Below are positions 8,728-62,191 of a stretch of DNA of 64,000 nucleotides, piece by piece. The notes below the pieces were generated by a model. It did no database searches. It saw only the letters and a program-made list of their open reading frames with translations, and had not been told where the DNA came from. This stretch comes from Nemertoderma westbladi (lineage: Eukaryota; Animalia; Xenacoelomorpha). The DNA lies in contig JAUCBJ010007135.1 of assembly GCA_032718475.1 (NCBI GenBank), forward strand, positions 1 through 64,000. Direction: 5' to 3'. A program made the translations under genes and the position numbers. How positions within the stretch are numbered: position 1 is the stretch's first letter; the number at the start of each line of letters is the position of its first letter.

Positions 8728-11700
8728 TTGTCAAACCCAAGTCCCCGGCATGGATGGCATCTGAACCTCAAGCAGAGTGAACTGGAGCCTGCGGCATATA
8801 CCAACCAGTACACGGGTGGGCAAGACATCACTTACGGGCGCATATCGCATACGGGCGTTGTAGCGGTCCGCGATGGGCGTCTCGCCGGACATAGACGTAT
8901 CCGGTGGTGGCGAGGTTGTTTGGAACGGCTGTGGGACAGTGGCTGTGGTACTCTGGGATCGGTGGGGCGACGGAGCGCATGGACGACAGAGGAAGTCCAA
9001 GGAAGGTAGCTCCGTTCGAGGAACTGGCGCGATGAACTCGCCGAGTACGTGGAGGCTGGTACCATATACGAGGTCAGTAGGAGAGCAGCCGGAGTCTTCG
9101 CGCCACGCAGTCCAGATGTTAAGGAGGACCATGAGGAGTTCGTCCATCCACTTGGGACCGACGAGGCGGGCCTTAAGAGAGGCCTTGAGTTGGCGATGGA
9201 GGCATTCTACCATGCCATTGGCCTGTGGGTGGTAGGCGGTTGTTTTGGACGCCGATATTCCTAGAAGTCTGTGCAGTTTGGCCCATAGATTGGATGTAAA
9301 CTGGGAGCCTCTGTCGGAAGAGATGTCACTGGGGACCCCGAAGCAAGAAATCCAGTGGCGGAGAAAGGCTCTGGCGCAGGTCTCGGTGGTTGAGTCGCCC
9401 ATTGGGATGACTTCTGGCCAGCGGCTGAACCTATCGATGATCAAGAATATATAGTTCATACCTTCGGAGACCGGTAGAGGGCCGACTATGTAGGCTGTTG
9501 AACCGGCAATTGGGGGGTTGATAGAATGTGAGTGGAGCACTGATGTGCCAGTGGATTTTAGAGGCCTGGCACAGGTGACACTCCTGGAACCATTTTCCGA
9601 CGTCGCGATTCAGGCTGTGCCAGACGAAGCAGGACGAGATGGCACGTTGCATTGGCTGACTACCGGAATGGCTGACTCCATGGATCGCATCGAACACACG
9701 TCCAGTCTACTCCTTGGGGATTATAGGACGAATTCGGCCTGTGGAGATGTCGCACAGGAGGGTGAAGTCACCGAACGGGACGTCTTCGAGGACCATGTTG
9801 GTTACAGCTGCCCGGTAGTCGTTTACCTCGGTAGACGATTTTTGTGCCATGGCGAATTGCCGGAAGTCGACAGTAGTCGCGCTAGCAAAGGCAAAGGTGA
9901 GGGGTTTATGGTCGGTGTAGACCGTAAATATTCGTCCTTCTACAAAATGGCGGAAGTGTTTGATCGCGAGGTATACAGCTAGCAACTCGCGATCGAATGC
10001 GCTGTATTTAATTTCGGCCGCCGATAGTTTTCGCGAGAAAAACGCAACAAGACGCCACACACCGCCATTAAGTTGTTAGAGTTTAGCGCTGACAGCTCGA
10101 TCGGAGGCATCGACGGTGACACTCGTGGAGGCGGACGAGTTGGGGTGGTGGAGGAGAGTTGCAGCGGCAAGGGAAGAATTGGTGGACTCGAACAAAGTTT
10201 GGTACTCGGAGTCCAAGTTATATCTTTGCCCTTCGATTTGGTTGCCTCATAGAGAGGGTAGAGTTTATCGGCCAACCTTGGTATGAAGCGGTGGTAATAG
10301 TTTACTATGCCAAGGAATCGCTGGAGGCTGAGTTTGGAGTCCGGGGTCGGGTAGTTCCGGATGGCGGTGACGCAGTTCTCGAGGGGGTGAATTCCGGAGA
10401 TGGTGACTTTGTGGCTGAGGTATGTCAATTCGTAGGCCCCGAAGACACACTTGGCGCGGTTTATTACCATTCCGTTGTCCGATAGGACCTGGGATACTTG
10501 GCGGAGATGGTCAATGTGTTCGGCGATAGTTTGACTGGCTACCAGGATGTCGTCGAGGTAGACGAACACAAATGGGATGCCGTGAAGGGTGCTGTCCATG
10601 AGCCATTGGAACGCCTGGGCAGTGTTCTTAAGCCCAAACAGCATTTGTAAGAACTCCCAAAGGCCGAAGGGAGTGATTATTGCTGTCTTCCGGGTGTCCC
10701 CGGTTGCCATGGGGATCTGGTGGTATCCCCTTACCAAGTCAATCTTGGAAAAGACCGACATACCATCCAGGTGGCTGTTGAAGTCCTGAATGTGTGGCAG
10801 GGGGTATCAGTCATCCACGGTGGCGTCATTGATCCGGCGGTAGTCCCTGCAGGGCCACCAACCACTGCCGGGTTTTGTGGCAATGTGGAGTGGGGAGGCC
10901 CACGGCGAGTTGGAACGACGGATTATTCCGAGTTCCTCCATCTTGTCAAACTCAGCTTTGGCCACCACAAGTTTCTCAGAGTCGAGACGACGAGCGCGAG
11001 CATGTAGCGGAGGTCCCTTGGTTACAATGTGGTGTTCCATACCGTGTTTATTTGCTGCGGTGGGCTCGAACCTCGGGATGAGGAGTTCCAGAAACTCATC
11101 TAGGAGTTGTTCGCAGGGGCTGACATGTTCGATGTGGATGCCAGTGATAGTGGACGAATTGCAAGCGATCTTGGTCAGGATCGCTCTAAAGTTCGACATA
11201 TCGATAAGGGATCGCCCTGCGAGGTTGATGGCCAACCGGTTGGCGAAGAAGAAATCGGCACTGAAGATTGGTGGGGTAATGTTGGCAACGTGGAATTCCT
11301 GCGTGAAGAAGTGCCCCGTTACCGAGGTGGAGGCGGATCGACCTCTTACCCCATGTGGCGATCGGGCTGCCATTGGCGGCAACCAATGGGGCAGTGGGGA
11401 CGCGGTTGCCTTTATCATAGGGCAGGGGAAACCGAGACTTCGGCTCCGCAGTCCACCAGATAAGTTTGGCCGCTGCGACGATCCCACACAGTCATCATCC
11501 TCTTCACATTCTGGCCGACCGCGGAGACGTTTAGCAGCCGGCCCAGACAGTGAGTCGAGGGTGGTGGGGAAGGAAGAAGGTGACTAAGTCGACAGCCTCT
11601 GTAGCTGCAATTCCGTGCAGCGTACTTCTTATTGAAGAAGCAGAGGTTTGAGTTGGGAGACTGTGTTGTACCGGCGGGGGTGGCATTTCTTTGAACACCG

Positions 11701-11930
11701 GCTCTGACGGGGTCGTTCCAGGTGCCTCCATAATGCGGTCGGCATCGGTGGCCAGAACATCGAGGTCCACAGTGTTCGAACCGGCAAGGACGCATCGGAC
11801 TTCGGACGGAAGCTGGGCGAGGAAGAGCGCCCCGAAGAGTGTATCCGGGTCAGCGTTAAGGGACCTCATGTGGCGGAGGAGGCCCGTTGGTTGGCAGTCT
11901 CCGAGTCCAGAAAGAGATAAAAGGTCAAAT
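8728..11930 (-). mobile_element. Degraded Ty3/Gypsy internal region (gag-PR-RT-RH-IN), CsRN1/Kabuki-like
   Basis: LGDCQPTGLLRHMRSL gag, YLVDCGAEVS protease, SPWASPLH, KIDLVRGYHQIP, YLDD, YSAFDRELLA, TDHKPL, SDRGSQF, TTAYHPQANGMVE. Multiple frameshifts and no LTRs seen. Confidence 0.92.
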
Positions 11931-11970
11931 AAATGGTCAAAATGTGGGTATCCATAACATAATAATGCCA

Positions 11971-12597
11971 TAGTATGCTCATTAGAACCATAATGACCGA
12001 TTTAGTGGGGGTAGACACCTTCAAAACAAACATAGAGCGAATAGTTCTTGAGATTTCGCAGAAAATTTGAAGTCCGGCATAAGTCTACTTTACAGCCTTG
12101 AAGCGATATGGGCAAATACACTAACAATGATACTTTGAATTATCTTAAGGCATCAAAAATATACACATCACTGCAACAAATTGATTTAGTGTATAAAGCA
12201 ACCTTCAAAATGAAAGAGTAGTGCTTAGTTCAATTTAATTTTTGTACGAAATGTGTGGAATGGGTCAACTCAATCTCAATATCAAGTATCAATAAATTGG
12301 TGGCCATAGTCTTGACATTTTGTAAAATAGCTCAAGAACTACTGACTCTACTCTTATTTTGAAGGGGTCTACACCCACTACATTGATCATTTTCTGTGAT
12401 GTGTCTATTCTTGATTCCTTGAGATAATTAAAAGTATCATTTTTAGTATATTTGTCCATATCGCATCAAGGTGGTAATGTAGACTTGTGCCGGACTTCAC
12501 GTTTTCTGCGATATCTCAAGAACTATTCGCTCTATGCTTGTTTTGATGATGTCTACGCCCACTAAATAGGTCATTGCGGTTCTAATGAGTATAATAA
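11971..12597. mobile_element. Foldback/MITE-like element with ~220-bp imperfect inverted arms
   Basis: 11971-12195 is the diverged reverse complement of 12375-12597 (e.g. catagagcgaatagttcttgaga / tctcaagaactattcgctctatg). Confidence 0.75.
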
Positions 12598-12999: not shown

Positions 13000-14951
13000 T
13001 GCCTTCACAGAAGCAGTTAAATTAGCAGCTGCAGAAACAGTTCCTGTATACCCTCGAAACAGGAAAAGGGCCCCTTGGGCTGACAACAAAATTCAAAAGT
13101 GGCGAAATGACCTCTATAAGGCGCAGAAAAAGGCACAGAAAGAGTCACGACTCAAACAGACTACAGCGGCCAAGAATGCCGTTAAGGCTGCATCTAGGTC
13201 CCTGAACAGGCAGTACTCTGCTAATCTACAGGAGCTAATAAACCAACAGGTTGATGCCATCAATGATGCTGACGACAGCAGGCAATCATCCCAGGCATGG
13301 AGATCGATCAATCTGCTTACTGGGCGGAAAAGCCAACCAACCACCAAGGTTAAGGCTGAATCACCAGCCGATCGCCTCAATGGTTGGAAAGCCCACTTTG
13401 AAAAGCATGACAGGGTATAGAAAAATATAGAAAATAATGACAGGGTATTGCCTGATAACTTTATAGAATTTAAAGCTCATCTATCCCATCATAGTAGACA
13501 TGTACCGAACAACAAGAGTCCCACAAGAAATGAAAACAAATAAGTTGGTGCCAGTTCCCAAGAAGGGCAACCTAACACTCTATGGTTGTTTTCGGGGAAT
13601 CTCATTAATCTCGATGGCTGCAAAGCTATATAATAGAATTATAAATCGCATCAGGGATCCCATTGAGAGACTGCTCCGTGGAAATCAGAATGGGTTCCGT
13701 AAAGGTCGTGGGACAATGGAACCCATTTTGGCACTTAGAAGGATAATTGAAGAATTATCAAAAAAGAAAGACAGGCACCTGGCTGTTATATTTGTTGACT
13801 TCTTCAAGGCCTTTGATTCAGTCTCTCGCTCATGTATGTTCAGCATACTTTCATTATATGGGATTCCTGATGAAATTATTGCAGAAATCAGATCAGTATA
13901 CTATGGCTCGACAACATTTGTGTCTACTGTTGACGGTGACACAGAACCATTTGAAGTGTTATGGGGCATCCTCCAGAGAGACACACTTGCACCATTCTTG
14001 TTCATAATTATGGTTGACTATGTTCTACGCATGTCCTTAGATCATCATAATGATGATGGGGCGATGATAACTCCACCTACTGGCTCCAGAAGTCTAGGAA
14101 ATCCTGCCAAGTACCTAACTGATCTAGACTTTGCTGATGACTTAGGAGTACTCTCAGAATCACTAGAGGGAGCGCAACGGCTCCTCAGCTCAATAGAACA
14201 GGCTGCTTCTGGTGTTGGTCTTTTTATTAACTTCAAAAAAACCAAAATTTTGACAGTTTACTTTGAAAGTCATCAGCAAGTCTCTGACTGGATGAGCATA
14301 AGCTCAAAGCAAGGTATGCTTGAGCATGTGGAAGACTTCTGTTACCTGGGATCATGGATCCGGAAGTCAGGTGAGGACCTTTCAATATGTAAGGGAAAGG
14401 CATGGGCAGCCTTGAATAGGCATTCTAGGATTTGGAAGTCACAGAGAATTAATCGGAAACTTAAGGTCCGATTATTTAGAGCAGCAGTAGTTCCAGTACT
14501 CCTTTATGGGAATCCATGCTGGGCTCTAACTGCTGAGGACACCAAATCTCTGGATGACAAATTCACAAGAATGCTACGCCTGGTTCATTGTGTCAATTAC
14601 AATGCACCCATCCCCAACCAGACACTATATAACATTGGAGGTGTCTCATTGGTTCCCCCAAGATGACACTAGAACAAAGTCGTCTCCGCTTTGCAGGACA
14701 TTGCTTTCACCGTGAGGACCAGCCAGTGCATAATCTTGTGCTTTGGCAGCCTCATGGAGTGAATAACCATGGTGGACAGCCCATGACATTCTTGAGACGC
14801 ATCTTAAAGGACACGGGCCTTGAAGATGCGGATGATCTAGCAAATGTCATGGGTGATATAGAGTTGTGGCGGTGCAATTTTGTCGAAAAGTCGGCACAAC
14901 ATTCTTAAAAATGCAACTGCAATGCAGCATGCCGATCCTAGTATTAGTAGT
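13000..14951 (+). mobile_element. RTE-like LINE, 5'-truncated, RT domain and 3' end
   Basis: PKKGNL, FRGISL, QNGFRKGR, FVDFFKAFDSV, GILQRDTLAPFLF, LDFADD. Frameshift near 14663. tagtattagtag tail. Confidence 0.9.
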
Positions 14952-16927: not shown

Positions 16928-18534
16928 TGTTCGCGGTATTTCAACTTTCCATAACGCGAGTTGAATATTTTTGTATTTATTTAAAATTGATTATTCCGAT
17001 ATTACTACTGGGTGCGGGACCATGGGTTTTGGGCACATTCAATAAACTGGGGGCGATTTATGGGCGAACTTTGGGGCAACTTACAGGGTACGGGAATAAT
17101 TTCAAAGTTATAAGGGCCAGGGGGGATGGAAAATGCAAGCAGTATTCAGGTTAGCCTGAGTACTATTAGGCCCTGGCCAACTTCCTGCTGCCTGTAGGGG
17201 TGGATTTGGTAATGCGCCAGGCCTAAAGGACAAGGACTGCCCTTAGCGGTCCCTGGCCAACGGCAGCTACTACGAGACTGAAAAGAACTCAGAACGCTGA
17301 CTGCTTGTGTCAGGGATTTGCGACGGGCACCGACGGCCCCTTAGTAGCCAAGCCGTTCTGGTTCTCGATGATCGAACCCCGGGGTTCGTGAGGGGTGGAG
17401 CGGACACGCGAACAGGTGGCCAACTAACGACTGCCCCCTGACCTAAGCCGTACTGGTTCTCGATGACCGATCCCTTCGGGGTTCGTGAGGGGTGGGACGG
17501 ACATGCGAAATGGCTGGCCACAGGACTGGTTTGACAAGGACTGCCCTTAGCGGTCTCGGGTCAACGGCAGCTACTACGAGCCTGAAAAGAACTTGGAACG
17601 CTGACTGCTTGACTGGGATTTGCGACGGGAACCGACGACAGAACCCTTGGCCAAGCCGTTCTGGTTCTCGATGATCGTTCCCTTCGGGGTTCGTGAGGGG
17701 TGGAACGGACACGCGATGGGGTCGAAAGACAAAGGACTAGACTCGACTAGACTCTACTGGCCTACCGACTGTTCGGAGCAGTTTCTCGGCTGCCGAAGCG
17801 ACTACGAGCCTGAAACGGACTCGGAAAGCCTAGGTGGTTGGGTTTCTGTGATGAACTGACGGACCCCTAGCCAAGCCGTTCTGGTTCTCGATGATCGAAC
17901 CCTTCGGGGTTCGTGAGGGGTGGAACGGACACGCGAACGGGTCCACCGACACGACAGACTCCTAGCCAAGCCGTACTGGTTCTCGATGACCGAACCCTTC
18001 GGGGTTCGAGAGGGGTGGTACGGATACGCGACAGAGTCTACCGACTGGACCGACCCTTAGCCAAGCCGTGCTGGTTCTCGATGATCGTTCCCTTCGCGGT
18101 TCGTGAGGGGTGGAACGGACACGCGACAGGGTCGACCGACACCGACACTACGGTACTAGGACTAGGACCGAGGGAAAATCTGGGGAACATTAGGTAGGCT
18201 AAAATTCTGAGCGAACAGCGGGTTATTAAATAATATACCGTAGGGATTTATATTATCGTGTATACTTATTGTGAATATTTGGTGTATATTGATTTGGGGA
18301 AGCCCAAAATTATTCTTAAACAAGTTTCAATATTGTTGAACAAGGTTCAACAGAGTTCAGTTACATTAAAGAGTATATCCAACTAATGCAGCTTTTCTCA
18401 ACCGCAAACTTGCATCTTAGAAAATATTCCCTCCCCACAATCAATATCCGGTGACTGGCCGGGGCTCGGTGGTCTGTTAAGTCACGTCTCCAGCATCGGC
18501 GTTTTTCCCCCCTGGTGTAGGAATAACGGCAACA
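16928..18534 (+). repeat. BEL-1 5' LTR (1607 bp)
   Basis: tgttcgcggt...aacggcaaca; matches 29470-30513. Confidence 0.95.
17335..18134 (+). ncRNA. Array of six structured RNA hairpin units (K-turn + UUCG) in the LTR
   Basis: Cores start at 17348, 17443, 17651, 17871, 17966 and 18061. Adjacent units are 95 nt apart. Covarying stems. Confidence 0.7.
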
Positions 18535-18744
18535 AAATTAAGAATAATTATCGTGGTCAACTTCAACTGGTGGAAGTTGAGAATCCTTCAATACTTCAAA
18601 AACTCTCTACGTGCTTGCCAGCACCCACTACGAGGAAACTCTGGTATTTGAGTTGAGACAAAGTCGTGGTTTAATTAATCAGCAAACTCGATCTAACCAA
18701 CTCATAGTCGGCAGATCACATATTTGGAGAGTTGTTAACAGGGA

Positions 18745-18936
18745 ATGGAAGTATCGATCACACCCATTGATATAATTCAAGTTGAGCCAGGAATCTGGCA
18801 CGTCGAAGTTGAGGTACAAGGAACGAACGTCGGACGATTCAGGATTACTGTTCGGGTGGTTCAAGCTGAGTACAATACCTACGATGAACTGTTTTACGAC
18901 ATCGCGTATCTCGCCATCGACGAGGCGTTACAATGA
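18745..18936 (+). CDS. Small upstream ORF (63 aa) overlapping the gag start (ATGA)
   Basis: ATG-initiated. Its TGA overlaps the gag ATG at 18933-18936. No recognised homology. Confidence 0.4.
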   Translation: MEVSITPIDIIQVEPGIWHVEVEVQGTNVGRFRITVRVVQAEYNTYDELFYDIAYLAIDEALQ

Positions 18937-21554
18937 CAACAAATAACGTATCCGATACCGACGAGATGGATCACCACACAGACTCGGAAGCCGACGAGGT
19001 ACCAAACGTCAAAAACATGACCCGTCGGTTAGGGGCTCTTAAAGGCGGAGTAACCCGAGCGTATCAACGGATGGAGAAACAACTCAAGGGAGTCAAAACC
19101 CCCCTCAATGAGGTACAAACTCAGCTTCAAAGTATCCGAAATATCCTACAGCGGTACGAAAGAATGATACAGGCGTACCAAGAGCTTGTTCCCCCCACCG
19201 ATCTGGAAAACTACCCCAAGCTGGAAGAACACGTTGTACATCTAGATGGGTTCCGCAAACAACACCGGAGGACCCTCAGCCTTGTGAGAGGCTATGAGGA
19301 ACAGTATTACAAGAGGGCTGAAAGAACAGACGCGGAATCAGTACGATCCTCCAGCATCAGGACAGGAGTACATCGCAAAAGAATGAGGTCCACCAGAAAT
19401 CAGCACTCCAGCGCTAGGAGCGAGATATCCGGCTCAGCGCGCAGTTCTCAAGGGGCGCCGCCACTCCGAGACCAACTGCGAGAGCGGAAGGCATTAGCCC
19501 TCAAAGCTCGGATGGAAGATGAGTATATTCAACTGCAAGCCGAGCAAGATGTATTAGCTGCAGAAACACAAAGGCGTGAGGCCGAACAAGCGGCCGAACG
19601 GCAGGCCGAACAACGTGAACAGGAAGCCGAACAACGCAGGCGAGAGGACGAACAACGCAAACGAGAGGACGAACGACAGGCCGAACAACGCAAACACGAG
19701 GACGAACGACAGGCCGAACAGCGCAAACACGAGGCCGAACAACGCAAACAGGAGGCCGAACAACGCGGACGAGAGGCCGAACGGGAGATCGAACAACGTA
19801 AATGGGAAGCAGAAATGCGTAAACAACACGCCGAGGCCCAAGCAATTCTCATCCACAAAAAGAACGCGGATATTGCAAAACTCGCGGAATACGAAGCCGC
19901 ACTTATAGAACGAGATATTCAACTCTACGAGGACTGGGAGAGGGATATAGATCAGGAATATGAACCAATCCCGGTACCGGAATTAGAAAAGTCATTTATA
20001 CCGACAGCGGCGAAACTTCCGAAACCCGAAATCCCGCCTACCAAACAGTCTACGCTATCGGCACAAGCACCGGTGTTCCATCCACCACCAGCGACGCTAA
20101 AGAACGAGGAACCTTATTTCCCATCCAACACCACGACAGCGAGTGTACCCAAGTACGAGCCTGAAAAGGACTCGGAACGGGACGCCACTCCCCGATCAAA
20201 CAACCCATTTACATCAACACCACAAACTCGTAGCTGCGTCATTATTAAAACTCCACCTATCATTGATCCATCAAGTATGGGAGTGAGTGCCAATAACTAT
20301 AACCCTCTGAGTCACTCCAGTTCAGACGACGTCAGCATCATCCGGGCGTTGGAGAACCGCCTTGCTATGCCTAAGATGGAGATTCGCACCTTCGAAGGAG
20401 ATCCCGTCGATTACCTCAGATTCAAGAAACGGTTCTTCGCGCAGATCGGATCAACGGACATAGCCGACGCACAGAAATTGGTATATTTATCGCAATACCT
20501 GGGTGACAAACCACGCAGAATTATTGCATGTTTTGAAGGAGGTTCTCATGAGGCATACTATGACGCATGGAAGACTCTAGATAAAAGATACGGAAACACC
20601 GGAACTATAATTAATAAAACTCTAGAGAGACTGATACAGGACGCGGGATCACTAGGGGACCCACAGAACATACAGGAATTCTCCGACTCTATGAAGGATG
20701 CCTACTACACTCTGAAACCCTTAAATAAGGAGGATCAGGTAAACAACATTCTAAACCTCCGACAGATCGCCCGGAAGTTCCCCGGATGGCTACAAAGTAA
20801 GTGGGCTTATAAATGTGTAGATCTCCGGCGCAGACATCCAGATCAAGATCCTAGCTTCCTTGAAATGTCGGCATTCCTGGACGATATCTCCGAAGCCATG
20901 AATGACTCGATGTTTTCAAAACAAAGTCTCGCAAAGTTGGACGGAATGGAGAGCAATTCCAGGAATAAGATAACCCCTCCGAAACCGAGATTCCGCCCCC
21001 CACCGGTAAGTACGATGGCCATCACCATGGCTGAGGATTCCGACGACGAAGACTACGAGGAACCGACATCCGCCGAGGAATGGGCATGTTATCTCGCGAA
21101 TTGGGCCCCCGAAAGGGAAGGCGTCACAAATTCCCTACTCTGTCTCTTCTGTGGGGAGAAACATAAAGTGGAATTCTGCAGGAAGTTTCAGTTCGCCGAA
21201 CTCGTCCCACGTTTCGAGGCGATAATGAAACACCGAGGATGTTTCCGGTGTCTTGGAACAGGTCACTACGTTCGGGATTGCGACCAAAGGTCGTGCTGTG
21301 CTGTCTGTAACGACCAACGCCATCACACGCTCCTCCACATCCCCGCGAACTTCGACTTTACTACCCTCCCCTTTCGGATCGAAGCCAGGCGAAGAGGAGA
21401 AACAAACCACGTCTTCAAAGGAACCCGGACAACCCAACGGAGAGAAACCAACCCGTTTAAAATCTCCACCGCTACACCACAAGTAACAAATATTTCGGCC
21501 ACGATTAATCTTATAAATCGCCGCTACATGGTTTTCTCCAGATGGAAGGAGTGA
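18933..21554 (+). CDS. gag: BEL/Pao Gag
   Basis: Coiled-coil EAEQRK repeats, FEGDPVDY...KLVYLSQYL...AWKTLDKRYG capsid-like region, three Cys/His knuckles (CLFCGEKH, CFRCLGTGH, CAVCNDQRHHTLLH). Confidence 0.92.
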   Translation: MTTNNVSDTDEMDHHTDSEADEVPNVKNMTRRLGALKGGVTRAYQRMEKQLKGVKTPLNEVQTQLQSIRNILQRYERMIQAYQELVPPTDLENYPKLEEHVVHLDGFRKQHRRTLSLVRGYEEQYYKRAERTDAESVRSSSIRTGVHRKRMRSTRNQHSSARSEISGSARSSQGAPPLRDQLRERKALALKARMEDEYIQLQAEQDVLAAETQRREAEQAAERQAEQREQEAEQRRREDEQRKREDERQAEQRKHEDERQAEQRKHEAEQRKQEAEQRGREAEREIEQRKWEAEMRKQHAEAQAILIHKKNADIAKLAEYEAALIERDIQLYEDWERDIDQEYEPIPVPELEKSFIPTAAKLPKPEIPPTKQSTLSAQAPVFHPPPATLKNEEPYFPSNTTTASVPKYEPEKDSERDATPRSNNPFTSTPQTRSCVIIKTPPIIDPSSMGVSANNYNPLSHSSSDDVSIIRALENRLAMPKMEIRTFEGDPVDYLRFKKRFFAQIGSTDIADAQKLVYLSQYLGDKPRRIIACFEGGSHEAYYDAWKTLDKRYGNTGTIINKTLERLIQDAGSLGDPQNIQEFSDSMKDAYYTLKPLNKEDQVNNILNLRQIARKFPGWLQSKWAYKCVDLRRRHPDQDPSFLEMSAFLDDISEAMNDSMFSKQSLAKLDGMESNSRNKITPPKPRFRPPPVSTMAITMAEDSDDEDYEEPTSAEEWACYLANWAPEREGVTNSLLCLFCGEKHKVEFCRKFQFAELVPRFEAIMKHRGCFRCLGTGHYVRDCDQRSCCAVCNDQRHHTLLHIPANFDFTTLPFRIEARRRGETNHVFKGTRTTQRRETNPFKISTATPQVTNISATINLINRRYMVFSRWKE

Positions 21555-24500
21555 TGAAGGGCTACGAAACGGCTAAGTTAACCATAAAGAACGCCTTGGT
21601 ACACACAGACCTCCGGGTGCGGTTCCGACAATCAGCCGAGTACGCCCCCCTCATACAATTGGCCCTGGACGATGTAGACCTGAGGTGTCCGCAGTTGGAC
21701 GTAAACCGTATCACCCTACTGATCGGACTTGATACACCGGAACTACACATCCCCACCGGAGATATCGCCCGATCTATAAACCAGGATGACGGATTTTATG
21801 CTGAACGAACAATAATGGGATGGACACTCTGCGGCATTAAGGAGGAAACCACGGACACCTATACCTACCTTCCCAAATGTCAGATTAAAGAGAATGTAAC
21901 CTCCGTGGGTTACTGCTCAGCTTCGGATCTCGACGAGGATTTGTTTCTGGAAACCGAGAAAACCCAACGAGAGATGACGAAATATTTTAATTTGGAGACC
22001 CAGGAGTTCGCGGAAAAGAACGAAAATCCATCCGAAGAGGACCAATATTGTATGGACGTTCTCGACCAGGCCACGTTTAAAGACGGACACTGGAGTTCAC
22101 CTATGTTATGGAAGGACCCAAACAAACCAATGGCAAACAACGCCAGCATGGCACTTAGGCGACTTAAAGGGATTCTACGCCGGTTGAATGACCAACCCGA
22201 GATAAAGGAGAAATATAATACCGTAATCCAAGGATATCTCAATGATGGATTGGCAGAAATAGTACCACGGAACGAACTGCAAGGTGGTGAAAGAACATAT
22301 TATCTCCCAACCCACTATGTAGTAGAAGCCCGCAAAGGTGGGAAAATCCGAGTGGTAAATGATGCTGCCGCTATGTACCAGGGCGAATCCCTAAACAGTC
22401 AACTTTACACGGGACCCAACATATATAGCACACTCATTGGCGTATTGATCAGGTTCAGGGAAAACCGGGTAGCATTCACCTGTGACATCAAGGCCATGTT
22501 TCATCAAGTTCGTACGTTACCAAGAGACTCGGACTGTCTACGTATCCTATGGACGGATAAAACGCTCACTCAACAGGAGATTAGCCAACTCACGATCAAG
22601 GACGTAGACGTAATGCGTATGGTCGTCAGGATCTTCGGCGCTAAGGACTCGCCGGTAGCATGCAGTGACATGCTAAAGAGGACAGCAACTATGTGCGAAA
22701 ACGAGTTCCCCCCAACCGTCATAGAAACCATTCGACTATGCTTCTACGTGGACGACGGATGCGCCGGCGCGGATAATGTGGATGAGGCATATCGGCTAGC
22801 GATGGGGATGGTAGAATGTCTGAAGAAAGGAGGGTTTCCGCTCGTGAAGTTCAGATCCCACGACAAAACACTTATGGAAAAGTTTCCGGAGGACATCCGG
22901 CTGGAAAATAACAAGATGTATTCGGAGGATGTGGAACATCGTGTACTCGGGATCGAATGGGACATAGAATCCGATGAATTCATCTTCAAATATAAACCCC
23001 TACCCAAGCCTATGACAAAAAGGGGATGTTTGTCGATAAAAAGTGCCATCTTCGACCCACTAAATTTCATATCTCCAGTAACCTTGGCCGGAATGAACCT
23101 GATTAAGGAAATGTGGATAGAAGGACTGGGATGGGACGAAGAGCTTCCCCCATACCTTAGCGTCAAATGGAGAAAATGGACGGAGCAGCTCGAACACCTA
23201 CATCTTATGCGAATACCTAGACCGTTCTTCCTCGATAAACTGCCCACCGATATCTTCCAGCTCCACACCTTTTCGGATGCTTCAAATACCGGAATCGGCG
23301 TAGTAACCTTCCTACGGAGACTAAGTAGCGATGGAAACGGCGATACAAGCTTCTTATTCTCCAAAGCAAAGACAGTATCCGGGGAATTCGTAGCAACGAT
23401 TCCGAGACTCGAGCTACAAGCTGCAGTTTGGGCAGTAAGACAGAATCGCATGGCTATGCGGAACCTACGGATCCCCATAGAATCTCAACACTTCTGGGTA
23501 GATTCGAGTATAGTTCTCTATTATCTCCACTCTCCATCACGGCGTCACACCACGTTTGTTGCAAATCGAGCCACAGAGATTAAACAGTGTACAGGCCGAG
23601 AACAGTGGCATCACGTGAACGGGAAGGGAAACCCAGCGGACTTATCAAGCCGAGGCGCCACCCCAAAACAACTCGGTAAAAGTAAACTCTGGCTTACCGG
23701 CCCGGAATTCCTACGGCAACCACAGTTAACATGGAGTACCCGATTCGACCCCGAACTCGATAGCGGAAAATACTCCGAGGACGATAAAGAGATTCGTAAA
23801 ATCCATCGAAGCAACGCGGTGGAAATTTATAGTTGCCTGACTGAGCCTGCAAAGGACTCGGGCAGGCACTATAACGTCGCGACGATCACTCAACTAGCGA
23901 CGTCTTTACATCGGTTGATCGAGCGAACTTCATCCATGAGACGGCTCGTCCACCACGTTATAACCCTTCGCAACTTCCTACGGTGGAAAAACAACAAACC
24001 GATAGTTCAACGGAATATACAAGAACTCATTATCGCGGAGAAGTGTATTGTTAGATATGTCCAGAAAGAAAGTTTCCCCGATGAATGGGAACAACTTAGT
24101 GCGGGCAAAACGTTGAAACCGGACAGCCCAGTCTACCAACTAAGACCAATGATGGGAGAGGACGGACTGATCCGACTGAATACCCGGATGGCAAACGCCC
24201 CGGTCGAATATGAGGTTAAATACCCGGCGCTTCTGCCCGGAACGTCGACACTAGCTAAGCTATTAATTCTACAATGTCACGAGGACAACCACCACGCAGG
24301 ACAGAATTGGATTATAGCTAATAAAAGACAAAGATATTGGATCACCCACATCCAGCCACTGATCCGGAAAGTGTTGAAACGTTGCTTCACCTGCAGACGT
24401 TACCTAGCGCCACCAATCACCCAAAAGATGGCCGACTTACCAGCCACCCGTCTACAAGCGGATTCCCAGCCATTCTACGTCACCGGGGTGGACTGTTTCG

Positions 24501-25450
24501 GACCGTTCACGGTTATTGAACGACGATCCAACATCAAATGCTGGGGAGCCATCTTCACCTGCCTGAGGTCTAGGGCAATTTACCTAGATATCGTGGTAAA
24601 TCTGACACAACACGCATTCATCAACGCTCTGCGTCGGTTCGTGGCGAACAACGGGACATGCCGCCACATGTATTCCGATAATGGTATAAACTTTGTGGGA
24701 GGAGAAAGGGAACTCAGAGAGGCGATCGAGGGATGGTTTACCGATAACACCGCATCCCAAGTCTGGAAGGAACACCAGATACAGTGGCACTTCCAGACCC
24801 CCTTAGCCCCCCATACGAGCGGGGTATGGGAGAAACTGATCGACCTCGTGAAACGATCCATGCGCGTCGCTCTAGGCGATACCCGGGTAACCCATGACAC
24901 CCTCCGCACAACATTCTGCGAGATCACGGCTACCCTGAACAACCGACCTATTGTCCCTATCCGCGACGACCCCACAGACCTGGAGCCCCTCACTCCTAAC
25001 CACCTACTGGGGAGACCCAAAACCCACCTCCTCCCGGAAACCATGTTCCCGGATCCCAACGAGATCACGAAACATACAAACTGGAAAAAGGCCCAAGCGT
25101 TGGCAGCGCATTGGTGGAGAATTTGGGCCCAGGAATACCTCATAACCCTCCGGACCAGGAGGAAATGGAACAACACCTACCGGAACGTCGCAGTTGGCGA
25201 CATGGTGCTAGTTAAAGAAGATCTCAAAGACCGCGTTCACTGGCCTGTGGCGCGGGTCGTGACCATACACCCAAGCAAAGACGGACTTGCGAGGACTGTG
25301 ACGATACGAACGGCAAAGGGCCACTACCAACGCCCTATCCAGAAGCTGTGCCTTCTTGAAGGCAATGACAGTGGTGATTCTACAAGAGGTGATAAGTTCC
25401 CTACTACGGATCCTGCTGCAGACATTGGTGACAATTACAAAACCGTGTAA
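21542..25450 (+). CDS. pol: BEL/Pao Pol (partial protease, RT, RNase H, integrase)
   Basis: DIKAMFHQV, FYVDD, HTFSDAS, IPRLEL, NPADLSSRG, GVDCFGP, YSDNGINF, GVWEKLI. Protease DSG motif not found. Confidence 0.95.
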   Translation: MEGVMKGYETAKLTIKNALVHTDLRVRFRQSAEYAPLIQLALDDVDLRCPQLDVNRITLLIGLDTPELHIPTGDIARSINQDDGFYAERTIMGWTLCGIKEETTDTYTYLPKCQIKENVTSVGYCSASDLDEDLFLETEKTQREMTKYFNLETQEFAEKNENPSEEDQYCMDVLDQATFKDGHWSSPMLWKDPNKPMANNASMALRRLKGILRRLNDQPEIKEKYNTVIQGYLNDGLAEIVPRNELQGGERTYYLPTHYVVEARKGGKIRVVNDAAAMYQGESLNSQLYTGPNIYSTLIGVLIRFRENRVAFTCDIKAMFHQVRTLPRDSDCLRILWTDKTLTQQEISQLTIKDVDVMRMVVRIFGAKDSPVACSDMLKRTATMCENEFPPTVIETIRLCFYVDDGCAGADNVDEAYRLAMGMVECLKKGGFPLVKFRSHDKTLMEKFPEDIRLENNKMYSEDVEHRVLGIEWDIESDEFIFKYKPLPKPMTKRGCLSIKSAIFDPLNFISPVTLAGMNLIKEMWIEGLGWDEELPPYLSVKWRKWTEQLEHLHLMRIPRPFFLDKLPTDIFQLHTFSDASNTGIGVVTFLRRLSSDGNGDTSFLFSKAKTVSGEFVATIPRLELQAAVWAVRQNRMAMRNLRIPIESQHFWVDSSIVLYYLHSPSRRHTTFVANRATEIKQCTGREQWHHVNGKGNPADLSSRGATPKQLGKSKLWLTGPEFLRQPQLTWSTRFDPELDSGKYSEDDKEIRKIHRSNAVEIYSCLTEPAKDSGRHYNVATITQLATSLHRLIERTSSMRRLVHHVITLRNFLRWKNNKPIVQRNIQELIIAEKCIVRYVQKESFPDEWEQLSAGKTLKPDSPVYQLRPMMGEDGLIRLNTRMANAPVEYEVKYPALLPGTSTLAKLLILQCHEDNHHAGQNWIIANKRQRYWITHIQPLIRKVLKRCFTCRRYLAPPITQKMADLPATRLQADSQPFYVTGVDCFGPFTVIERRSNIKCWGAIFTCLRSRAIYLDIVVNLTQHAFINALRRFVANNGTCRHMYSDNGINFVGGERELREAIEGWFTDNTASQVWKEHQIQWHFQTPLAPHTSGVWEKLIDLVKRSMRVALGDTRVTHDTLRTTFCEITATLNNRPIVPIRDDPTDLEPLTPNHLLGRPKTHLLPETMFPDPNEITKHTNWKKAQALAAHWWRIWAQEYLITLRTRRKWNNTYRNVAVGDMVLVKEDLKDRVHWPVARVVTIHPSKDGLARTVTIRTAKGHYQRPIQKLCLLEGNDSGDSTRGDKFPTTDPAADIGDNYKTV

Positions 25451-25734
25451 CCCTTCTCATCATGTTGACAAACTCTTATAAACTGTGATTTATCGACAAC
25501 GAATTATGGACCCCCCTTAAACCAACTGTAACCACGCAATGGTATTTGTGTTTCCTCGTGTGTTATGTGGAGTCCAGCATCACCCTGCAGATGTTTCGAC
25601 TGACGCAGGGTCGTTTATGTATTGTTTACCCTGATTTTGGTCATCGGGACCAATGATATTGGATTATTGGAAATGGAAAAGATTTGAAGTGGAATTCATT
25701 GTATTCATTGCAGTATGTTATGTTGTCCGTTGCG

Positions 25735-26150
25735 TGCGCAGTTCGGGGCGTAGGCGGTGTAACGAGTCCAGCTGTAGATCCCGGATTGCCGCGCAACACC
25801 CCCTCTATCCCGTTATTCTGGTGGGTCCATGGTGCATCCACGTGACTTCGACGATAGAGGGTTTTATGTTTCTCAGTCGCGTTATTCTGGTGGGACCGTT
25901 ACGTGGATTTTGGGGCGTAGGCGGTGTAACGAGTCCAGCTGTAGATCCCAGAATGTTGCGTAACCCCATCCCACATGACTTCGTCGACTGAGCTTTATGT
26001 TGTTGGGAGTGTTATTCTGGTGGGTCCCTGGTGCATCCACGTGACTTCACTCCTAGCGTCTTCATTGTCCGTTACGTGTGCAGTTTGGGGCGTAGGCGGT
26101 GTAACGAGTCCAGCTGTAGATCCCAGATTGCCGCGTAACACCCCTTCCAC
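25735..26150 (+). repeat. GC-rich interleaved repeats between pol and the accessory ORF
   Basis: ggggcgtaggcggtgtaacgagtccagctgtagatccc x3 and gttattctggtggg x3. Confidence 0.9.
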
Positions 26151-26692
26151 GACAAAGATTAACCAAAGAAAATGATTGAATATAGTTGGAAACGATGAAA
26201 AGGATCAGACAACTCTACTATAAACCTGAATGATGACGCGTATACTGATGAAAATGAAATGATGCGCACCCTGGTGTTGCGCTTATAACAAATGATGATA
26301 GCCGGGGGGCTATAACCCCAATGATGATGTGGAAATAAATAAACGTGAAATAAATGGTGGAAATAAATGTTGAAATATATGTGGAAATAAATGAAATGAG
26401 ATGAAATAATAATGAAATGAAAAAAGACAAAAAAAAGGTATAAAAGAGGTCAAAGAAAAGAATTGGAAAAAAAAGGACAAAAAAGTCATAAAAAACTGGT
26501 TGGATATTATGTATAGCTATAGTAACTGTAAATGCTGAATGTATTAGCAATAAGATGATAGATGTCTATATAGCAATGTTATTTAATAAACTGAATTAAA
26601 TAAAAAACTGAATTATTCTGCGATCGCTATAGTTTCAGACTTTCTGGACTTATAATTAACTGATCTAATTTGTAACGGATATAATCGTAAAT

Positions 26693-27352
26693 ATGGACCC
26701 AAATCGCCAAATTATCGGCGAATTACGTAACACGATAGATCTACTGGAATATTCGCAACCTGGATCCCCTGACTTTGATACAAAGTGGAGCATTCTGCTA
26801 AATGAGAACGTACGAGAAGTTAAATTCACCGGGCGAGAGGGACCGGATTCTAAGAATCTACGAGCCCTCCGGTTAGCCGATGCTAGTACGAGACTGAAAA
26901 GAACTCAGAACGCAAAGGCAACCGGAGGGGACGATTCGTCGTTTTGGGAAACGTTCCGGCAGAGCGTCTACAGATCCCGATGTTTGATCTACGACAACGA
27001 GGGAAACGCGACGCCCACCTCGAAAGCGATTACGTTGGCGAGATGTCAAAGTTTCGTCGACGACAAGAGTACGTACCTCGCCCACTGGGGAAACCTGTCG
27101 GAGTGTACGGCGACGCTTCGAGAGGAACGCGTATCGATTATCCAAAACCGCGACGACTACCAGGAAAAGTACGGGGCGAAAGAATATTGTCGATCCTTAG
27201 TCGTCGTCCTCGGAACCCTGGACGGTTTGGTACTGGTGTGCCGAATATTCACCCAGACACCCGACACCCAGACAGGAAGTGCAGGCAGCCGGAGCGATCT
27301 GGTTGCTGCCTCCGGATATCCAAAAGATCCTCTTCGACTTCGACGTCATTAA
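26693..27352 (+). CDS. Accessory ORF, N-terminal part (ExoI motif of a DEDDy exonuclease)
   Basis: CLIYDNEG fits the ExoI DxE motif. VVVLGTLDGLVLV strands follow. Overlaps the next ORF in the +1 frame. Confidence 0.65.
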   Translation: MDPNRQIIGELRNTIDLLEYSQPGSPDFDTKWSILLNENVREVKFTGREGPDSKNLRALRLADASTRLKRTQNAKATGGDDSSFWETFRQSVYRSRCLIYDNEGNATPTSKAITLARCQSFVDDKSTYLAHWGNLSECTATLREERVSIIQNRDDYQEKYGAKEYCRSLVVVLGTLDGLVLVCRIFTQTPDTQTGSAGSRSDLVAASGYPKDPLRLRRH

Positions 27353-29303
27353 AATCGGGTCGGATATCAAGGCGGACGTCCGGAACGACTACGCGAACGC
27401 TCCCGCAGGAAGAAACCGACGAAACGACCTCAACGCACTTAGCCATTGCATCGACACTCAAACGCTGCTAGCCTGGTTACGATTCGCCGAGTTCATGCGA
27501 GGATTCCAAGAAGTGAGACCGACGAAATCCGGGATCGGCTACCTCGCTGTGCTCAACGGCGGTATCGACTTCAAACCCCAGAAATTCCGGGACTATAATA
27601 AAATATACGGCGGATACCCGGGATTAGAGATAAAGAGCGAGCGAGAGGGTCGATGGAAGGACGTCGATCGGAAGTGGACGATACACCAAAGGTGGGAGAA
27701 TCCCGATCGACGGAGCTATATCTACGTCGTTATGGAATGCTACACCGTCGCTAAGTTTATCTGTAAAACTCTCGATAACCTTATTACGGCGGTCCCCCTT
27801 TCCTTCGTCGACTACGATTGGAACGAGGTTATAAACCATGCGTTTAAAGCGGTCGAGAACATTACACCGGGAGAATCGAAAACACCCGCCGTTATCGATT
27901 CCTGGGACGAGAGCGGACCTTACGACATCCCTACGATTACCGAACTTCTCGGTGCGGAGGAGCCTCTGATCTCCTCGGAAGGGGAAGAGATATGGCTAAA
28001 CGAGGGTGTTCTACTCTCCACCCCGAAGCGACAACTCGAGCCGGAGGCCGCGTACGGACCGGCCGCCAAACGGGTTGCCTCGGCCGAACCGATGAAGAGA
28101 GCAGGCGTCTACACCCCACGCGGCTCCGGTAGCCCCGCGAGAGAGGTAGCCACTACGGCTGCATTGAGCGACTTCGGCGACATATGCCAACGGTTATCCC
28201 CGTATCCTTTCCCGGGCGGCGAAGATTGGTCGTCGGAGATTCCGAGTACCACCCAACAACGGACCCGCTCAGCGATACTGGTCAAGGAAGGCCCCAGCGA
28301 TGCGCCGACACCCGACGATCTCCTCGGTATCCCTCCGTCGAAAACCCCGGCACCTCTTCGCCGACCAGCGGTAGCTACTACACCCGCCGTTCCTCAGGAC
28401 CCTATGCGACTAACCCGTTGGTACGCCGAGCAAACTGAATGGATCCACCGCCAGAAACGGTCGTCCGAGCTGAGACCAGCGGGACACAAAGAGGGTTATC
28501 GAAGCGAGAACATACTACGCAAAAGCCCAGCATTCCGCGGGCTACCGACCACCGAGAATATTCCGAAGAGCGACCGACGACTCGAATACTACGCCGGCGT
28601 CCCGATTCCGATATTCCCCGGTCGAGAGATGCAGTTGGAGGTATGCGGCGACTGCGGTTCGGAGCAGTGCCCACGCAGCAGAAGGAATCGGGTTACCGAT
28701 TCTTGCCTCCAGCTCCTCGGGATACTCAATTGCCCATACTGCGCGACATCGGGCCACGACGTTTCCGTCTGCCCGATTCTTTATAACCTCTGCACCACGT
28801 GCGGTTTCCGTGGACATTCCTCTAGCCCCCGCTGCTATATCAAATGTCCAACCAAAGACGTTACCGCTATGGGAAATATGGTCATGTTTGAAACATACGC
28901 AAACAGCCACTTAAAGACCAAGTTTCGGAGAAACGCTCGGAATATCGCGCAGGAGATGGCGTGCGGATATTTCTCCTTCCCGGAACGCCTCCACACGTCG
29001 GCCTCGCTACTCTTCCATTACGTGGATCTGCTACTGAGCGCCGGATTATTCGGTCCATTCGAAGTTATTAGACGATTATATTCGTATAAAGAGGAGTTCG
29101 GTGACGGAGAATGGTTCCTAGAGGCACGCAACTCCGAGTTGGAAAGACGAACCGACATGATACCGTTGCCTTCGAAAGGAAGAGCCGCCAGGAGACAAGC
29201 CGAAGCGTTACTCACAATGGATGTTGACGCTCCTCTACCAGCCATAGCGATCGATGAGAGTCGAAGGGCGAAGAGACGAAAGGCGTACCAGAAAAAGAAA
29301 TAA
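27279..29303 (+). CDS. Accessory ORF, C-terminal part: WRN/RNase D-like 3'-5' exonuclease, Pro-rich linker, CCHC knuckles, basic tail
   Basis: LPPDIQKILFDFDVIKIGSDIKAD (ExoII), CIDTQ, SGIGYLA, RWENP..YIYVVME (ExoIII-like), CPYCATSGHDVSVC, CTTCGFRGHSSSPRC, RRAKRRKAYQKKK. Confidence 0.75.
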   Translation: MQAAGAIWLLPPDIQKILFDFDVIKIGSDIKADVRNDYANAPAGRNRRNDLNALSHCIDTQTLLAWLRFAEFMRGFQEVRPTKSGIGYLAVLNGGIDFKPQKFRDYNKIYGGYPGLEIKSEREGRWKDVDRKWTIHQRWENPDRRSYIYVVMECYTVAKFICKTLDNLITAVPLSFVDYDWNEVINHAFKAVENITPGESKTPAVIDSWDESGPYDIPTITELLGAEEPLISSEGEEIWLNEGVLLSTPKRQLEPEAAYGPAAKRVASAEPMKRAGVYTPRGSGSPAREVATTAALSDFGDICQRLSPYPFPGGEDWSSEIPSTTQQRTRSAILVKEGPSDAPTPDDLLGIPPSKTPAPLRRPAVATTPAVPQDPMRLTRWYAEQTEWIHRQKRSSELRPAGHKEGYRSENILRKSPAFRGLPTTENIPKSDRRLEYYAGVPIPIFPGREMQLEVCGDCGSEQCPRSRRNRVTDSCLQLLGILNCPYCATSGHDVSVCPILYNLCTTCGFRGHSSSPRCYIKCPTKDVTAMGNMVMFETYANSHLKTKFRRNARNIAQEMACGYFSFPERLHTSASLLFHYVDLLLSAGLFGPFEVIRRLYSYKEEFGDGEWFLEARNSELERRTDMIPLPSKGRAARRQAEALLTMDVDAPLPAIAIDESRRAKRRKAYQKKK

Positions 29304-29458
29304 TGGATTGGGATATTCCAGGAACATTTATCGAACATTTATTTTTATACAAACTCTAGGCCAAATTAATTAAAAACTATGCAATATTAAATTTGGGATT
29401 TTTTATATTGGGAATGACCTACGCAAACTCAATCGACCGACAGACTTCACGAAGGTCA

Positions 29459-29469
29459 TTGGGGGGGAC
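29459..29469 (+). promoter_or_regulatory. Polypurine tract of BEL-1
   Basis: ttgggggggac immediately precedes the TGT of the 3' LTR. Confidence 0.8.
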
Positions 29470-30513
29470 TGTTCGCGGTATTTCAACTTTCCATAACGCG
29501 AGTTGAATATTTTTGTATTTATTTAAAATTGATTATTCCGATATTACTACTGGGTGCGGGACCATGGGTTTTGGGCACATTCAATAAACTGGGGGCGATT
29601 TATGGGCGAACTTTGGGGCAACTTACAGGGTACGGGAATAATTTCAAAGTTATAAGGGCCAGGGGGGATGGAAAATGCAAGCAGTATTCAGGTTAGCCTG
29701 AGTACTATTAGGCCCTGGCCAACTTCCTGCTGCCTGTAGGGGTGGATTTGGTAATGCGCCAGGCCTAAAGGACAAGGACTGCCCTTAGCGGTCCCTGGCC
29801 AACGGCAGCTACTATGAGACTGAAAAGAACTCGGAACGCTGACTGCTTGTGTCAGGGATTTGCGACGGGCACCGACGGCCCCTTAGTAGCCAAGCCGTTC
29901 TGGTTCTCGATGATCGAACCCCGGGGTTCGTGAGGGGTGGAGCGGACATGCGAACAGGTGGCCAACTAACGACTGCCCCCTGACCTAAGCCGTACTGGTT
30001 CTCGATGACCGATCCCTTCGGGGTTCGTGAGGGGTGGGACGGACATGCGAAAGGGCTGGCCACAGGACTGGTTTGACAAGGACTGCCCTTAGCGGTCTCG
30101 GGTCAACGGCAGCTACTACGAGCCTGAAAAGAACTCGGAACGCTGACTGCTTGACTGGGATTTGCGACGGGAACCGACGACAGACCCCTTAGCCAAGCCG
30201 TTCTGGTTCTCGATGATCGTTCCCTTCGGGGTTCGTGAGGGGTGGAACGGACACGCGATGGGGTCGAAAGACAAAGGACTAGACTCGACTAGACTCTACT
30301 GGCCTACCGACTGTTCGGAGCAGTTTCTCGGCTGCCGAAGCGACTACGAGCCTGAAACGGACTCGGAAAGCGAAATGGACCCGCAAACTTGCATCTTAGA
30401 AAATATTCCCTCCCCACAATCAATATCCGGTGACTGGCCGGGGCTCGGTGGTCTGTTAAGTCACGTCTCCAGCATCGGCGTTTTTCCCCCCTGGTGTAGG
30501 AATAACGGCAACA
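29470..30513 (+). repeat. BEL-1 3' LTR (1044 bp, internal deletion)
   Basis: Matches the 5' LTR except for about seven substitutions seen by eye and replacement of 17830-18401 by gaaatggac. Confidence 0.95.
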
Positions 30514-30710
30514 ATCTATAGTGAAATATTTCCACACCATTCCATGAAAACAGTAAGTAAGACTGTTTTCACCAATCAAAATATAAAAATATCAACTAAA
30601 AAATATATCTAATCTAATGTAGGGCCTAAAATATAAAAAATAATCACTGTATAGCCTATTGCATACAAAATATTGCAAATAATACGTAAATATAAAACTT
30701 TAATTTATAC

Positions 30711-32531: not shown

Positions 32532-32643
32532 TTAATGGCATAGTTTTTCGAGCGAATGAAATCTTACCCTACACATCTACACCTAAAGAGGTAGTTATTG
32601 GCAGTTCGAGTTCAACGTATACTGATGAATCAATTCCCACAAT

Positions 32644-32895
32644 GGGCTAATTTTGAGTTAGCTCCTTTGAAACGGTTCCGTTTAAAAATGGCTAACTCAG
32701 ACATTAATATCTACAGTATGTAACTCAAAATAATTCAGCAAATTTGAGTTAGCTCCTTTTAAACAGAACAGTTTAAAGGGAGCTAACTCAAAATAATTCT
32801 ACAAATTCTGACTTAGCTCCTTTTAAACGGAAGCATTTAAAGGGAGCTAAATCAAATTCATTACTCAAATAATGAGTTAGCCCCTTTAAACGGTT
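32644..32895. repeat. Tandem hairpin-forming repeats
   Basis: gagttagctccttt alternates with its complement ggagctaactc, about four units. Confidence 0.75.
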
Positions 32896-33059
32896 GATTT
32901 TAAAGTTACGATTTGGTGTGATGACATTAGCTGGAATAAATACATTTTTCTAAAACCCCTCAGCAAAGTCTACTCCTACTCTATACCTCAGCAAAGTATT
33001 CATACTAGATAGCAGATATTACATATAGTACATAGTAGATTATACTGCTGAACAACTGT

Positions 33060-34030: not shown

Positions 34031-34243
34031 GTCCTTTATGTTAGTTACTTGGTTACAAATACAATATTACAATTGCATAATGTCAATTCAGCTATGCCCA
34101 TTGGCTGTCTTACACACGTTGTCGTCAAAGAACACTTTAACAAAAATGTCTTTGATTTTCAAAAATGTCTTTACACATTTCTCGAGTAAGTAATCTACAA
34201 ATATTAATAACTTCAATTCCAACACATTTCGGCTGTTAATTAA

Positions 34244-45735: not shown

Positions 45736-45902
45736 TCTAACGATTAATCTAACGATTATCTAACGTGTTTACCTAACGAACTTCGCAATATACGAGGGAA
45801 GCGTCTGTTTGTAAATAAGTTAAAAGCTCATCTACTTAATTCAGATGGCCTATCTGCTTCGTAGTCACATATTTTTTACGTTTCTCCTAATAATATATAT
45901 TA

Positions 45903-62113: not shown

Positions 62114-62191
62114 CGAAGGGGTGATTTCGAGAACAGGCCTAATTATTTCAGGCTCATCTACTATAGTAGGGAGTCTTTCTATTTTAATTAT

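Follow-up and report, generated by a model that had tools for sequence, protein, structure and literature searches.

Tandem hairpins with a kink-turn signature in the long terminal repeat of a BEL/Pao retrotransposon from Nemertoderma westbladi

Standard kink-turns (K-turns) are known from the U4 5′ stem-loop, which is bound by Snu13/15.5K, from archaeal l7ae leaders and from Kt-7. Among sequence rules described for them, C:G pairs at −1b:−1n and at 4b:4n are ribosomal-type and fold-permissive, and box C/D K-turns strongly conserve G-C at 4b:4n (PMC5689011); C at position 3b also allows folding (PMC4382518). In SELEX with Snu13, the pair chosen next to the G.A pairs was nearly always U.U; SBP2 requires its fourth pair to be purine-pyrimidine (PMC1874613). 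The natural K-turns of l7ae mRNAs that are bound by L7Ae combine a GAU bulge with weak C-helices and stay unfolded until the protein binds (PMC6298567). For LTR elements of invertebrates, export and packaging of unspliced RNA are poorly mapped. In the open-access literature we found no description of K-turns in retroelements or of RNA structure in BEL/Pao elements. The terms ‘secondary structure’ and ‘hammerhead’ do not occur in the main text on the rotifer elements Juno and Vesta (PMC5408684), nor ‘retrotransposon’, ‘LTR’ or ‘transposable’ in the main text of the klRNA preprint (10.64898/2026.08.03.742641).

We describe an array of hairpins in an LTR retrotransposon of N. westbladi. All positions refer to the window, the whole stretch of 64 000 nt that was analysed. 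The element has the following parts:

16928..30517, + strand: BEL/Pao LTR retrotransposon, with TG...CA ends and the 5-bp target duplication ATCTA on both sides
16928..18533, + strand: 5′ LTR, 1606 nt, with the array complete
18308..18319, + strand: 12-mer of the LTR that can pair with the primer-site position; given self-priming, the RNA likely begins here
18357..18370, + strand: TCAGTT, which we take to be an Inr-like motif, and ATTAAA, a poly(A)-like hexamer (18365)
18538..18549, + strand: primer-site position, exact complement of 18308–18319
18888..21554, + strand: gag frame, with DUF1759 and CCHC (zf-CCHC)
21509..25450, + strand: pol frame (RT-RNase H-integrase), with Peptidase_A17, Integrase_H2C2 and DUF5641
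26669..29303, + strand: ORF3 region, which this copy carries in more than one frame, with a DEDDy 3′–5′ exonuclease-like domain and C-terminal zinc knuckles
29461..29468, + strand: purine run in polypurine-tract position, directly before the 3′ LTR
29470..30517, + strand: 3′ LTR, in which the stretch equivalent to 17830–18401 is gone and a 9-nt filler stands instead

The element has the LTR ends and target-site duplication, the Gag domains (DUF1759, CCHC) and the Pol domains (Peptidase_A17, integrase, DUF5641; all Pfam) of the BEL/Pao group. Its best Gag and Pol homologues are ∼37–41% identical, and the named ones are mostly from marine invertebrates. The gag and pol genes lie in different frames with no UGA split between them. 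This copy is defective at the gag-pol junction, in ORF3 and in the 3′ LTR: the protease motif D[ST]G is absent from all + frames at the junction, and the deletion in the 3′ LTR takes away array units 4–6 together with the predicted promoter/R region. The insertion is young, since the two LTRs differ by only 7 substitutions in 1034 aligned nt.

The LTR, whole or in part, is present in six sequencing runs from four studies. No RNA run is among those listed; in one run that may be RNA, a contig starts in the purine tract and reaches almost to the end of the LTR, and it therefore does not bear on expression. In two of the four runs examined, 4338 and 1275 variant contigs mapped to the LTR, and the family is therefore multi-copy; contig depths are not copy numbers, and the variant tables used below are filtered (the best 40 of 109 rows, and four rows for organism B). 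As known differences between units are missing from these tables, the absence of variants at K-turn bases was not used as evidence. Searches for related loci in viral contigs with Pol and with the ORF3 homologue P0121 gave no match.

The assignment of ORF3 comes from Atlas (0.91, with 30 of 30 matches in PF01612) and from a profile-free HMMER scan, whose one match, P0121 on an ENA contig, carries both the exonuclease-like and the zinc-knuckle parts. Pfam, a word-indexed search and the PDB sequences gave no match for ORF3. The region thus looks like a DEDDy exonuclease joined to zinc knuckles, and the first acidic exonuclease motif was not located in it in this copy.

Elsewhere in the window there is a second BEL/Pao element (55733–63655, − strand; Pol ∼33% identical, a 2152-aa frame with a protease match), and no comparable hairpin repeat array was found downstream of it. 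The window also contains pieces of a further LTR element (RT, integrase) together with an RT frame of non-LTR type (8731–12001, − strand, and 13467–14666, + strand), a tandem repeat of ∼52–73-nt units adjoining reverse-transcriptase fragments on the − strand (45850–46635), a duplicated block of ∼3.27 kb with four 163-nt repeats per copy (31031–35800), a 428-aa frame with a weak 7TM GPCR (Srsx) match (5304–6590) and a perfect 37-bp inverted repeat with a 1-nt spacer (47616–47690).

No resemblance to a tRNA site is seen at the primer site, which is complementary to the LTR; only 5 of 2000 shuffles gave such complementarity. This suggests self-priming of the Tf1 type. A further hairpin follows the primer site at ∼18558–18579. 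When an LTR element is active, its genomic RNA includes all bases of the LTR. The start of that RNA is predicted at 18308 or 18357, downstream of the array, and the array is therefore predicted to lie in U3, present once, in the 3′ UTR of the genomic RNA.

The array consists of hairpins that we call A:

17335..17421, + strand: A1, K-turn signature, loop lacking two bases of cUUCGg
17433..17519, + strand: A2, C.U at 3b:3n, lower loop CCUAAG/CAUGC, nearest to the 11-nt receptor
17641..17723, + strand: A3
17861..17944, + strand: A4, bulge GAU at 17890–92, UUCG at 17903–06; in its tip (+ strand) G.A/A.G is formed by 17893–94 with 17915–16, and U.U by 17895/17914
17956..18039, + strand: A5, C.A at 3b:3n, three two-sided changes relative to A4
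18051..18134, + strand: A6
29877..30265, + strand: copies of A1–A3 in the 3′ LTR, with hairpin B2 in between

Six units in the 5′ LTR and three kept in the 3′ LTR are present as originally predicted, with start-to-start spacings of 95, 208, 220, 95 and 95 nt in the 5′ LTR. The cUUCGg loop ascribed to them all is intact in four of the six 5′-LTR units; besides the shortened loop of unit 1, that of unit 6 is changed, a change absent from nearly all contig depth among the variants listed. Units 2, 3 and 6 have U.U mismatches in the upper stem. Some contigs join unit 1 to units 4–6 and skip the others (joints within 17327–18144), so that unit number may vary between copies, or the assemblies may collapse it. 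A perfect box C word is followed at once by CTGA at 17848–17859; this D-like word is not conserved, since most contig depth among the variants listed has C at 17857.

That the A hairpins are selected RNA structures is, in our view, highly probable, on evidence from one element plus contig variants. The bases flanking each core had been predicted to be complementary and to change together, and the quoted pairs are indeed found in the sequence. Pairing of each A unit with its own flank is better than in 711 of 720 permutations of the flanks (9/720 as good), and with the 3′-LTR versions of units 2 and 3 only 2/720 are as good; permutation counts of this kind are not clean p-values, because units are related by duplication. 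The disruptive 5′-LTR bases 17511 and 17649 are rare in the family (contigs, variants listed). Flanks of two further hairpin families, B and C (below), likewise pair with their own partners (1/720 and 1/6 permutations, respectively). An alignment of the A units that keeps their outer stem in register shows two-sided changes at 5 of 27 pairs, a level reached by 8 of 500 shuffles; the nine rows of the alignment include three 3′-LTR duplicates and hence are not independent. Transversions are among these two-sided changes. The covariation claimed for the inner stem comes down to one event, a two-sided change from U-A to A-U in unit 5 and in no other unit; at the same position two purines face each other in units 2 and 6.

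As RNA, each of the 13 hairpins tested folds better on the + than on the − strand, and 12 of the 13 contain G.U pairs. The array is not CpG-depleted (CpG o/e 1.06). Folding z-scores were weak for 99-nt windows including flanks (−2.4 to +1.6); with stem-trimmed boundaries they were −3.1 to −5.5 for eight of nine hairpins, values inflated by the trimming. Of the selected multivalent RNP scaffold put forward in the original prediction, it is the sense-strand RNA structure that gains support, from own-flank pairing, transversions, CpG content and strand bias.

All six A tips have a C-stem of only four pairs (two of them G.U), a GAU bulge, G.A/A.G, a non-Watson–Crick third pair and then C-G. The standard K-turn pattern is thus present in 6/6 units, and 2 of 3000 unit shuffles match the descriptor; this descriptor, which was chosen after the motif had been seen, matches the array seven times, once outside the units, where shuffled sequence gives 0.10 matches on average. 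The U.U thought to follow the G.A pairs occurs in four of the six units, C.U replacing it in unit 2 and C.A in unit 5. The standard K-turn signature of the predicted box C/D-type K-turn stands and the box C/D label falls: the tip reads AUGAUCG / GUGA as against RUGAUGA plus CUGA, no CUGA is present, and 4b:4n is C-G, not G-C. Because this pair is ribosomal-type, the units follow the standard K-turn pattern and the box C/D motif was rejected. With U.U in most units and C-G at the fourth pair, Snu13/15.5K fits better than SBP2. Judging from the motif, the A tips probably fold as K-turns.

We favour, tentatively and at somewhat less than even confidence, a reading in which the A tips are K-turns that bind host Snu13/15.5K, and the multivalent RNP so formed protects and routes the unspliced genomic RNA. 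The A hairpins would act as selected structures in the predicted 3′ UTR (U3) of the BEL/Pao genomic RNA; their K-turn folding would probably be protein-driven, out of a competing slipped register; Snu13/15.5K, and not SBP2, would load on the K-turns in the nucleus; and the loaded array would shield the unspliced RNA and route it out. No snoRNP assembly is expected, because the box C/D determinants are absent. The chances that Snu13 binds the array in vivo seem to us evenly balanced. A role in protection and export, which is argued by analogy with structured export elements of LTR retrotransposons such as the MTE of MusD (PMC5767303), is possible but should be held more loosely; a search of the open-access literature gave no precedent for Snu13 acting in retroelement export. 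Where five functions had been offered without a choice among them (export, packaging, translation, nuclease protection and small RNAs), this scheme would assign protection and export to the array. If it is true, an essential protein of snoRNPs and the spliceosome has been recruited by a retroelement, a connection to the host that is absent from the open-access literature searched, and in a genome with many copies the array could titrate Snu13/15.5K.

The same selected hairpins may instead carry a plain 5-nt AUGAU bulge, with Gag nucleocapsid or the ORF3 knuckles reading a packaging or localisation signal and with neither K-turn nor L7Ae-family protein involved. Minimum-energy and centroid folds give this slipped register, in which the 3′ GA is Watson–Crick paired; in ViennaRNA, whose energy model has no K-turn term, every one of the six units favours it over the K-turn register, by 4.0–6.0 kcal/mol. 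CCHC knuckles are encoded in both Gag and ORF3, and GAC is frequent in the single-stranded linkers of the array (49 per kb; GTC, 8.5 per kb). Because the K-turn bases and the C-stem never vary, covariation cannot tell the two registers of the tip apart. The variants that do bear on it go against the slipped register: its top pair is broken by U to A at 17914, found in unit 5 and in about a tenth of contig depth, and the register itself is broken by a variant from organism B (both among the variants listed). The latter is one divergent contig of depth 2.2, in which the pyrimidine run before the bulge is kept in another order; it fits the K-turn register and not the slipped one, its partner strand being only partly known. 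A plain bulge also leaves the exact K-turn/Snu13 spelling unexplained, given how few shuffles reproduce it. We regard this alternative as unlikely, though it deserves to be taken seriously.

The original prediction stopped at the A hairpins and missed a second family, B, which extends into gag and pol. Its motif is a 3-bp stem with a bulged A and a U-GNRA-N loop, carried on a long stem. Two more families, C and D, lie between pol and ORF3.

17246..17321, + strand: hairpin B1, core 17274–17290
17550..17623, + strand: hairpin B2, core 17578–17594
17778..17849, + strand: hairpin B3, core 17806–17822
20157..20173, + strand: B core within gag, coding for EPEKDS, flanks AGUA/GAA
23815..23881, + strand: B hairpin within pol, core 23843–23859, GCAA loop, coding for EPAKDS
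26861..26939, + strand: B hairpin at the 5′ end of the ORF3 region, core 26890–26906, flanks AGUA/GAA
25729–25797, 25897–25965 and 26071–26139, + strand: three C hairpins between pol and ORF3
∼25802–25860, 25868–25990 (enclosing C2) and 26001–26056, + strand: three D hairpins, tips fixed and stems varied

In the LTR the order of the two families is B-A-A, B-A, B-A-A-A. In the B loops either GNRA is preserved (GAAA to GCAA) or there is a T-loop, U-G-N-R-A with one base bulged out, and the flanks AGUA/GAA of two copies are, we presume, loop-E-like. The descriptor for B has six matches on the + strand and none on the − strand of the predicted genomic RNA; the internal region contributes three, against 0 of 200 shuffles, and the 50 kb outside the element yield two AT-rich loose matches. 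The linker that carries the hairpin in pol shows poor conservation and exceeds in length that of two homologues. Within the favoured scheme, the six dispersed B hairpins would be landing sites for an element protein (Gag or the ORF3 zinc knuckles), that is, packaging or assembly signals. The C hairpins share an invariant 38-nt apex on varied lower stems; the apex has a GUA/GUA internal loop, a bulged A and a 10-nt loop starting with UGUAA. Rfam gave no family match, the C and D hairpins included (best E-values 1.3–6.1, far below gathering score). Pattern scans returned two loci in viral contigs and one in metagenomes, all chance matches without the hairpin, and none in prokaryote genomes. Hammerhead, twister, pistol and HDV-like ribozymes were dropped, since Rfam gave no match and inspection by eye showed no core, and so was an A-box/B-box look of the A unit, because ARAGORN finds no tRNA.

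With B in hand, an architecture of RNA alone can be drawn, in which B tips dock into the lower loops of A, the K-turns are Mg2+-folded bends and a 12–13-kb RNA is compacted or dimerised. The predicted genomic RNA has as many A as B hairpins, six of each, though the equal count may be chance, because unit number may differ between copies or assemblies. Known T-loops invariably take part in long-range contacts or ligand sites (PMC2615604), and the K-turn sequence rules predict ion-induced folding (PMC5689011). The lower loop of most A units, GCCAAG/CACGC, resembles the 11-nt GAAA receptor CCUAAG/UAUGG, whose flipped-out U tolerates C (10.1101/2024.03.11.584472). It is not that receptor: five of six A units have C for the U of the U.A handle, the order of the first pair is reversed, there is an additional bulged A, and even unit 2 has CCUAAG/CAUGC. 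Moreover, no covariation between A and B is visible. We think this architecture quite improbable, and slightly more so its variant with protein, a modular RNA whose six K-turn A hairpins would dock pairwise with the six B hairpins, three of them set in coding sequence, over kilobases and be locked by Snu13. If true, A–B docking would compact or dimerise the genome for its export and packaging, and an animal mobile element would have a scaffold that is ornate-RNA-like.

The hairpins might also serve as roadblocks or release units for 3′–5′ trimming by ORF3 or the exosome, leaving defined ends or RNAs of 70–95 nt. ORF3 is DEDDy-like, such ORFs occur in rotifer LTR elements (PMC5408684), and loss of the K-turn exposes snoRNAs to exonucleases (PMC3845636). 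This protection of snoRNAs, however, needs terminal C and D boxes, which the A units do not have; that the first acidic motif of ORF3 was not located in this copy counts against trimming as well, and B copies inside coding regions do not suit release. We consider trimming very improbable.

Tandem repeats are common in U3, and the array stands upstream of the predicted start site, where ordinary enhancer repeats could act as DNA, their stems having arisen by template switching or chance. What stands against enhancers is that the stems change on both sides while the loops stay constant, that all the hairpins favour the RNA strand and nearly all use G.U pairs, that the UUCG and GNRA loops are RNA motifs, that B recurs in coding sequence and that the array keeps its CpGs. 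Such repeats have, if anything, even less claim to be the explanation.

Some features might recall a recoding element of the SECIS kind, or a guide RNA, either box C/D or H/ACA in archaeal style: the core AUGA...GA, its third pair of U.U type, the place in a 3′ UTR and the large conserved internal loop beneath the K-turn. Even taken together, these readings are exceedingly improbable: as a SECIS, the A unit has an upper stem of 6–7 bp, a UUCG loop and no AAR, there is neither an in-frame UGA split nor an Rfam match, and its pyrimidine-purine fourth pair disfavours SBP2 (PMC1874613); as a box C/D guide it lacks CUGA; and as an H/ACA guide it has a predicted target with 0 matches in the 64-kb window and an ACA off the expected distance by eye.

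We take the array to be a cis-acting structured element of retroelement RNA whose architecture has not been described before in the open-access literature. With standard kink-turns the A tips share the 3-nt bulge with a U at L3, the tandem G.A/A.G, C:G at −1 and the non-Watson–Crick third pair, and with the l7ae leaders in particular the GAU bulge and the weak C-helix (PMC6298567). They differ in being six tandem copies in a retroelement 3′ UTR, capped by UUCG, faced with a competing register and known from sequence. With the box C/D K-turn of snoRNAs they have the AUGAU strand in common, and in four of six units U.U at 3b:3n; unlike it, they have C-G at 4b:4n and no CUGA, are internal to a hairpin and not terminal, and carry no guide. 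In ORF3 the element recalls the rotifer elements Juno and Vesta, which also have an extra exonuclease-like ORF after pol (PMC5408684); here, in contrast, the element is BEL/Pao and ORF3 has zinc knuckles as well. The B family is comparable to the dispersed packaging signals of ssRNA viruses (MS2 type), where a short hairpin with a bulged A is repeated, coding regions included; B differs in having only six copies, on long stems, and its ligand is putative. As to function, the CTE of MPMV is an RNA transport element, as are the MTE of MusD and the PTE of MLV. Like the A array, the latter two are structured multi-stem elements of unspliced genomic RNA and proposed platforms for host factors (PMC5767303). 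All three use kissing loops, pseudoknots or NXF1 loops, whereas the A array has repeated predicted K-turns and a putative role in export.
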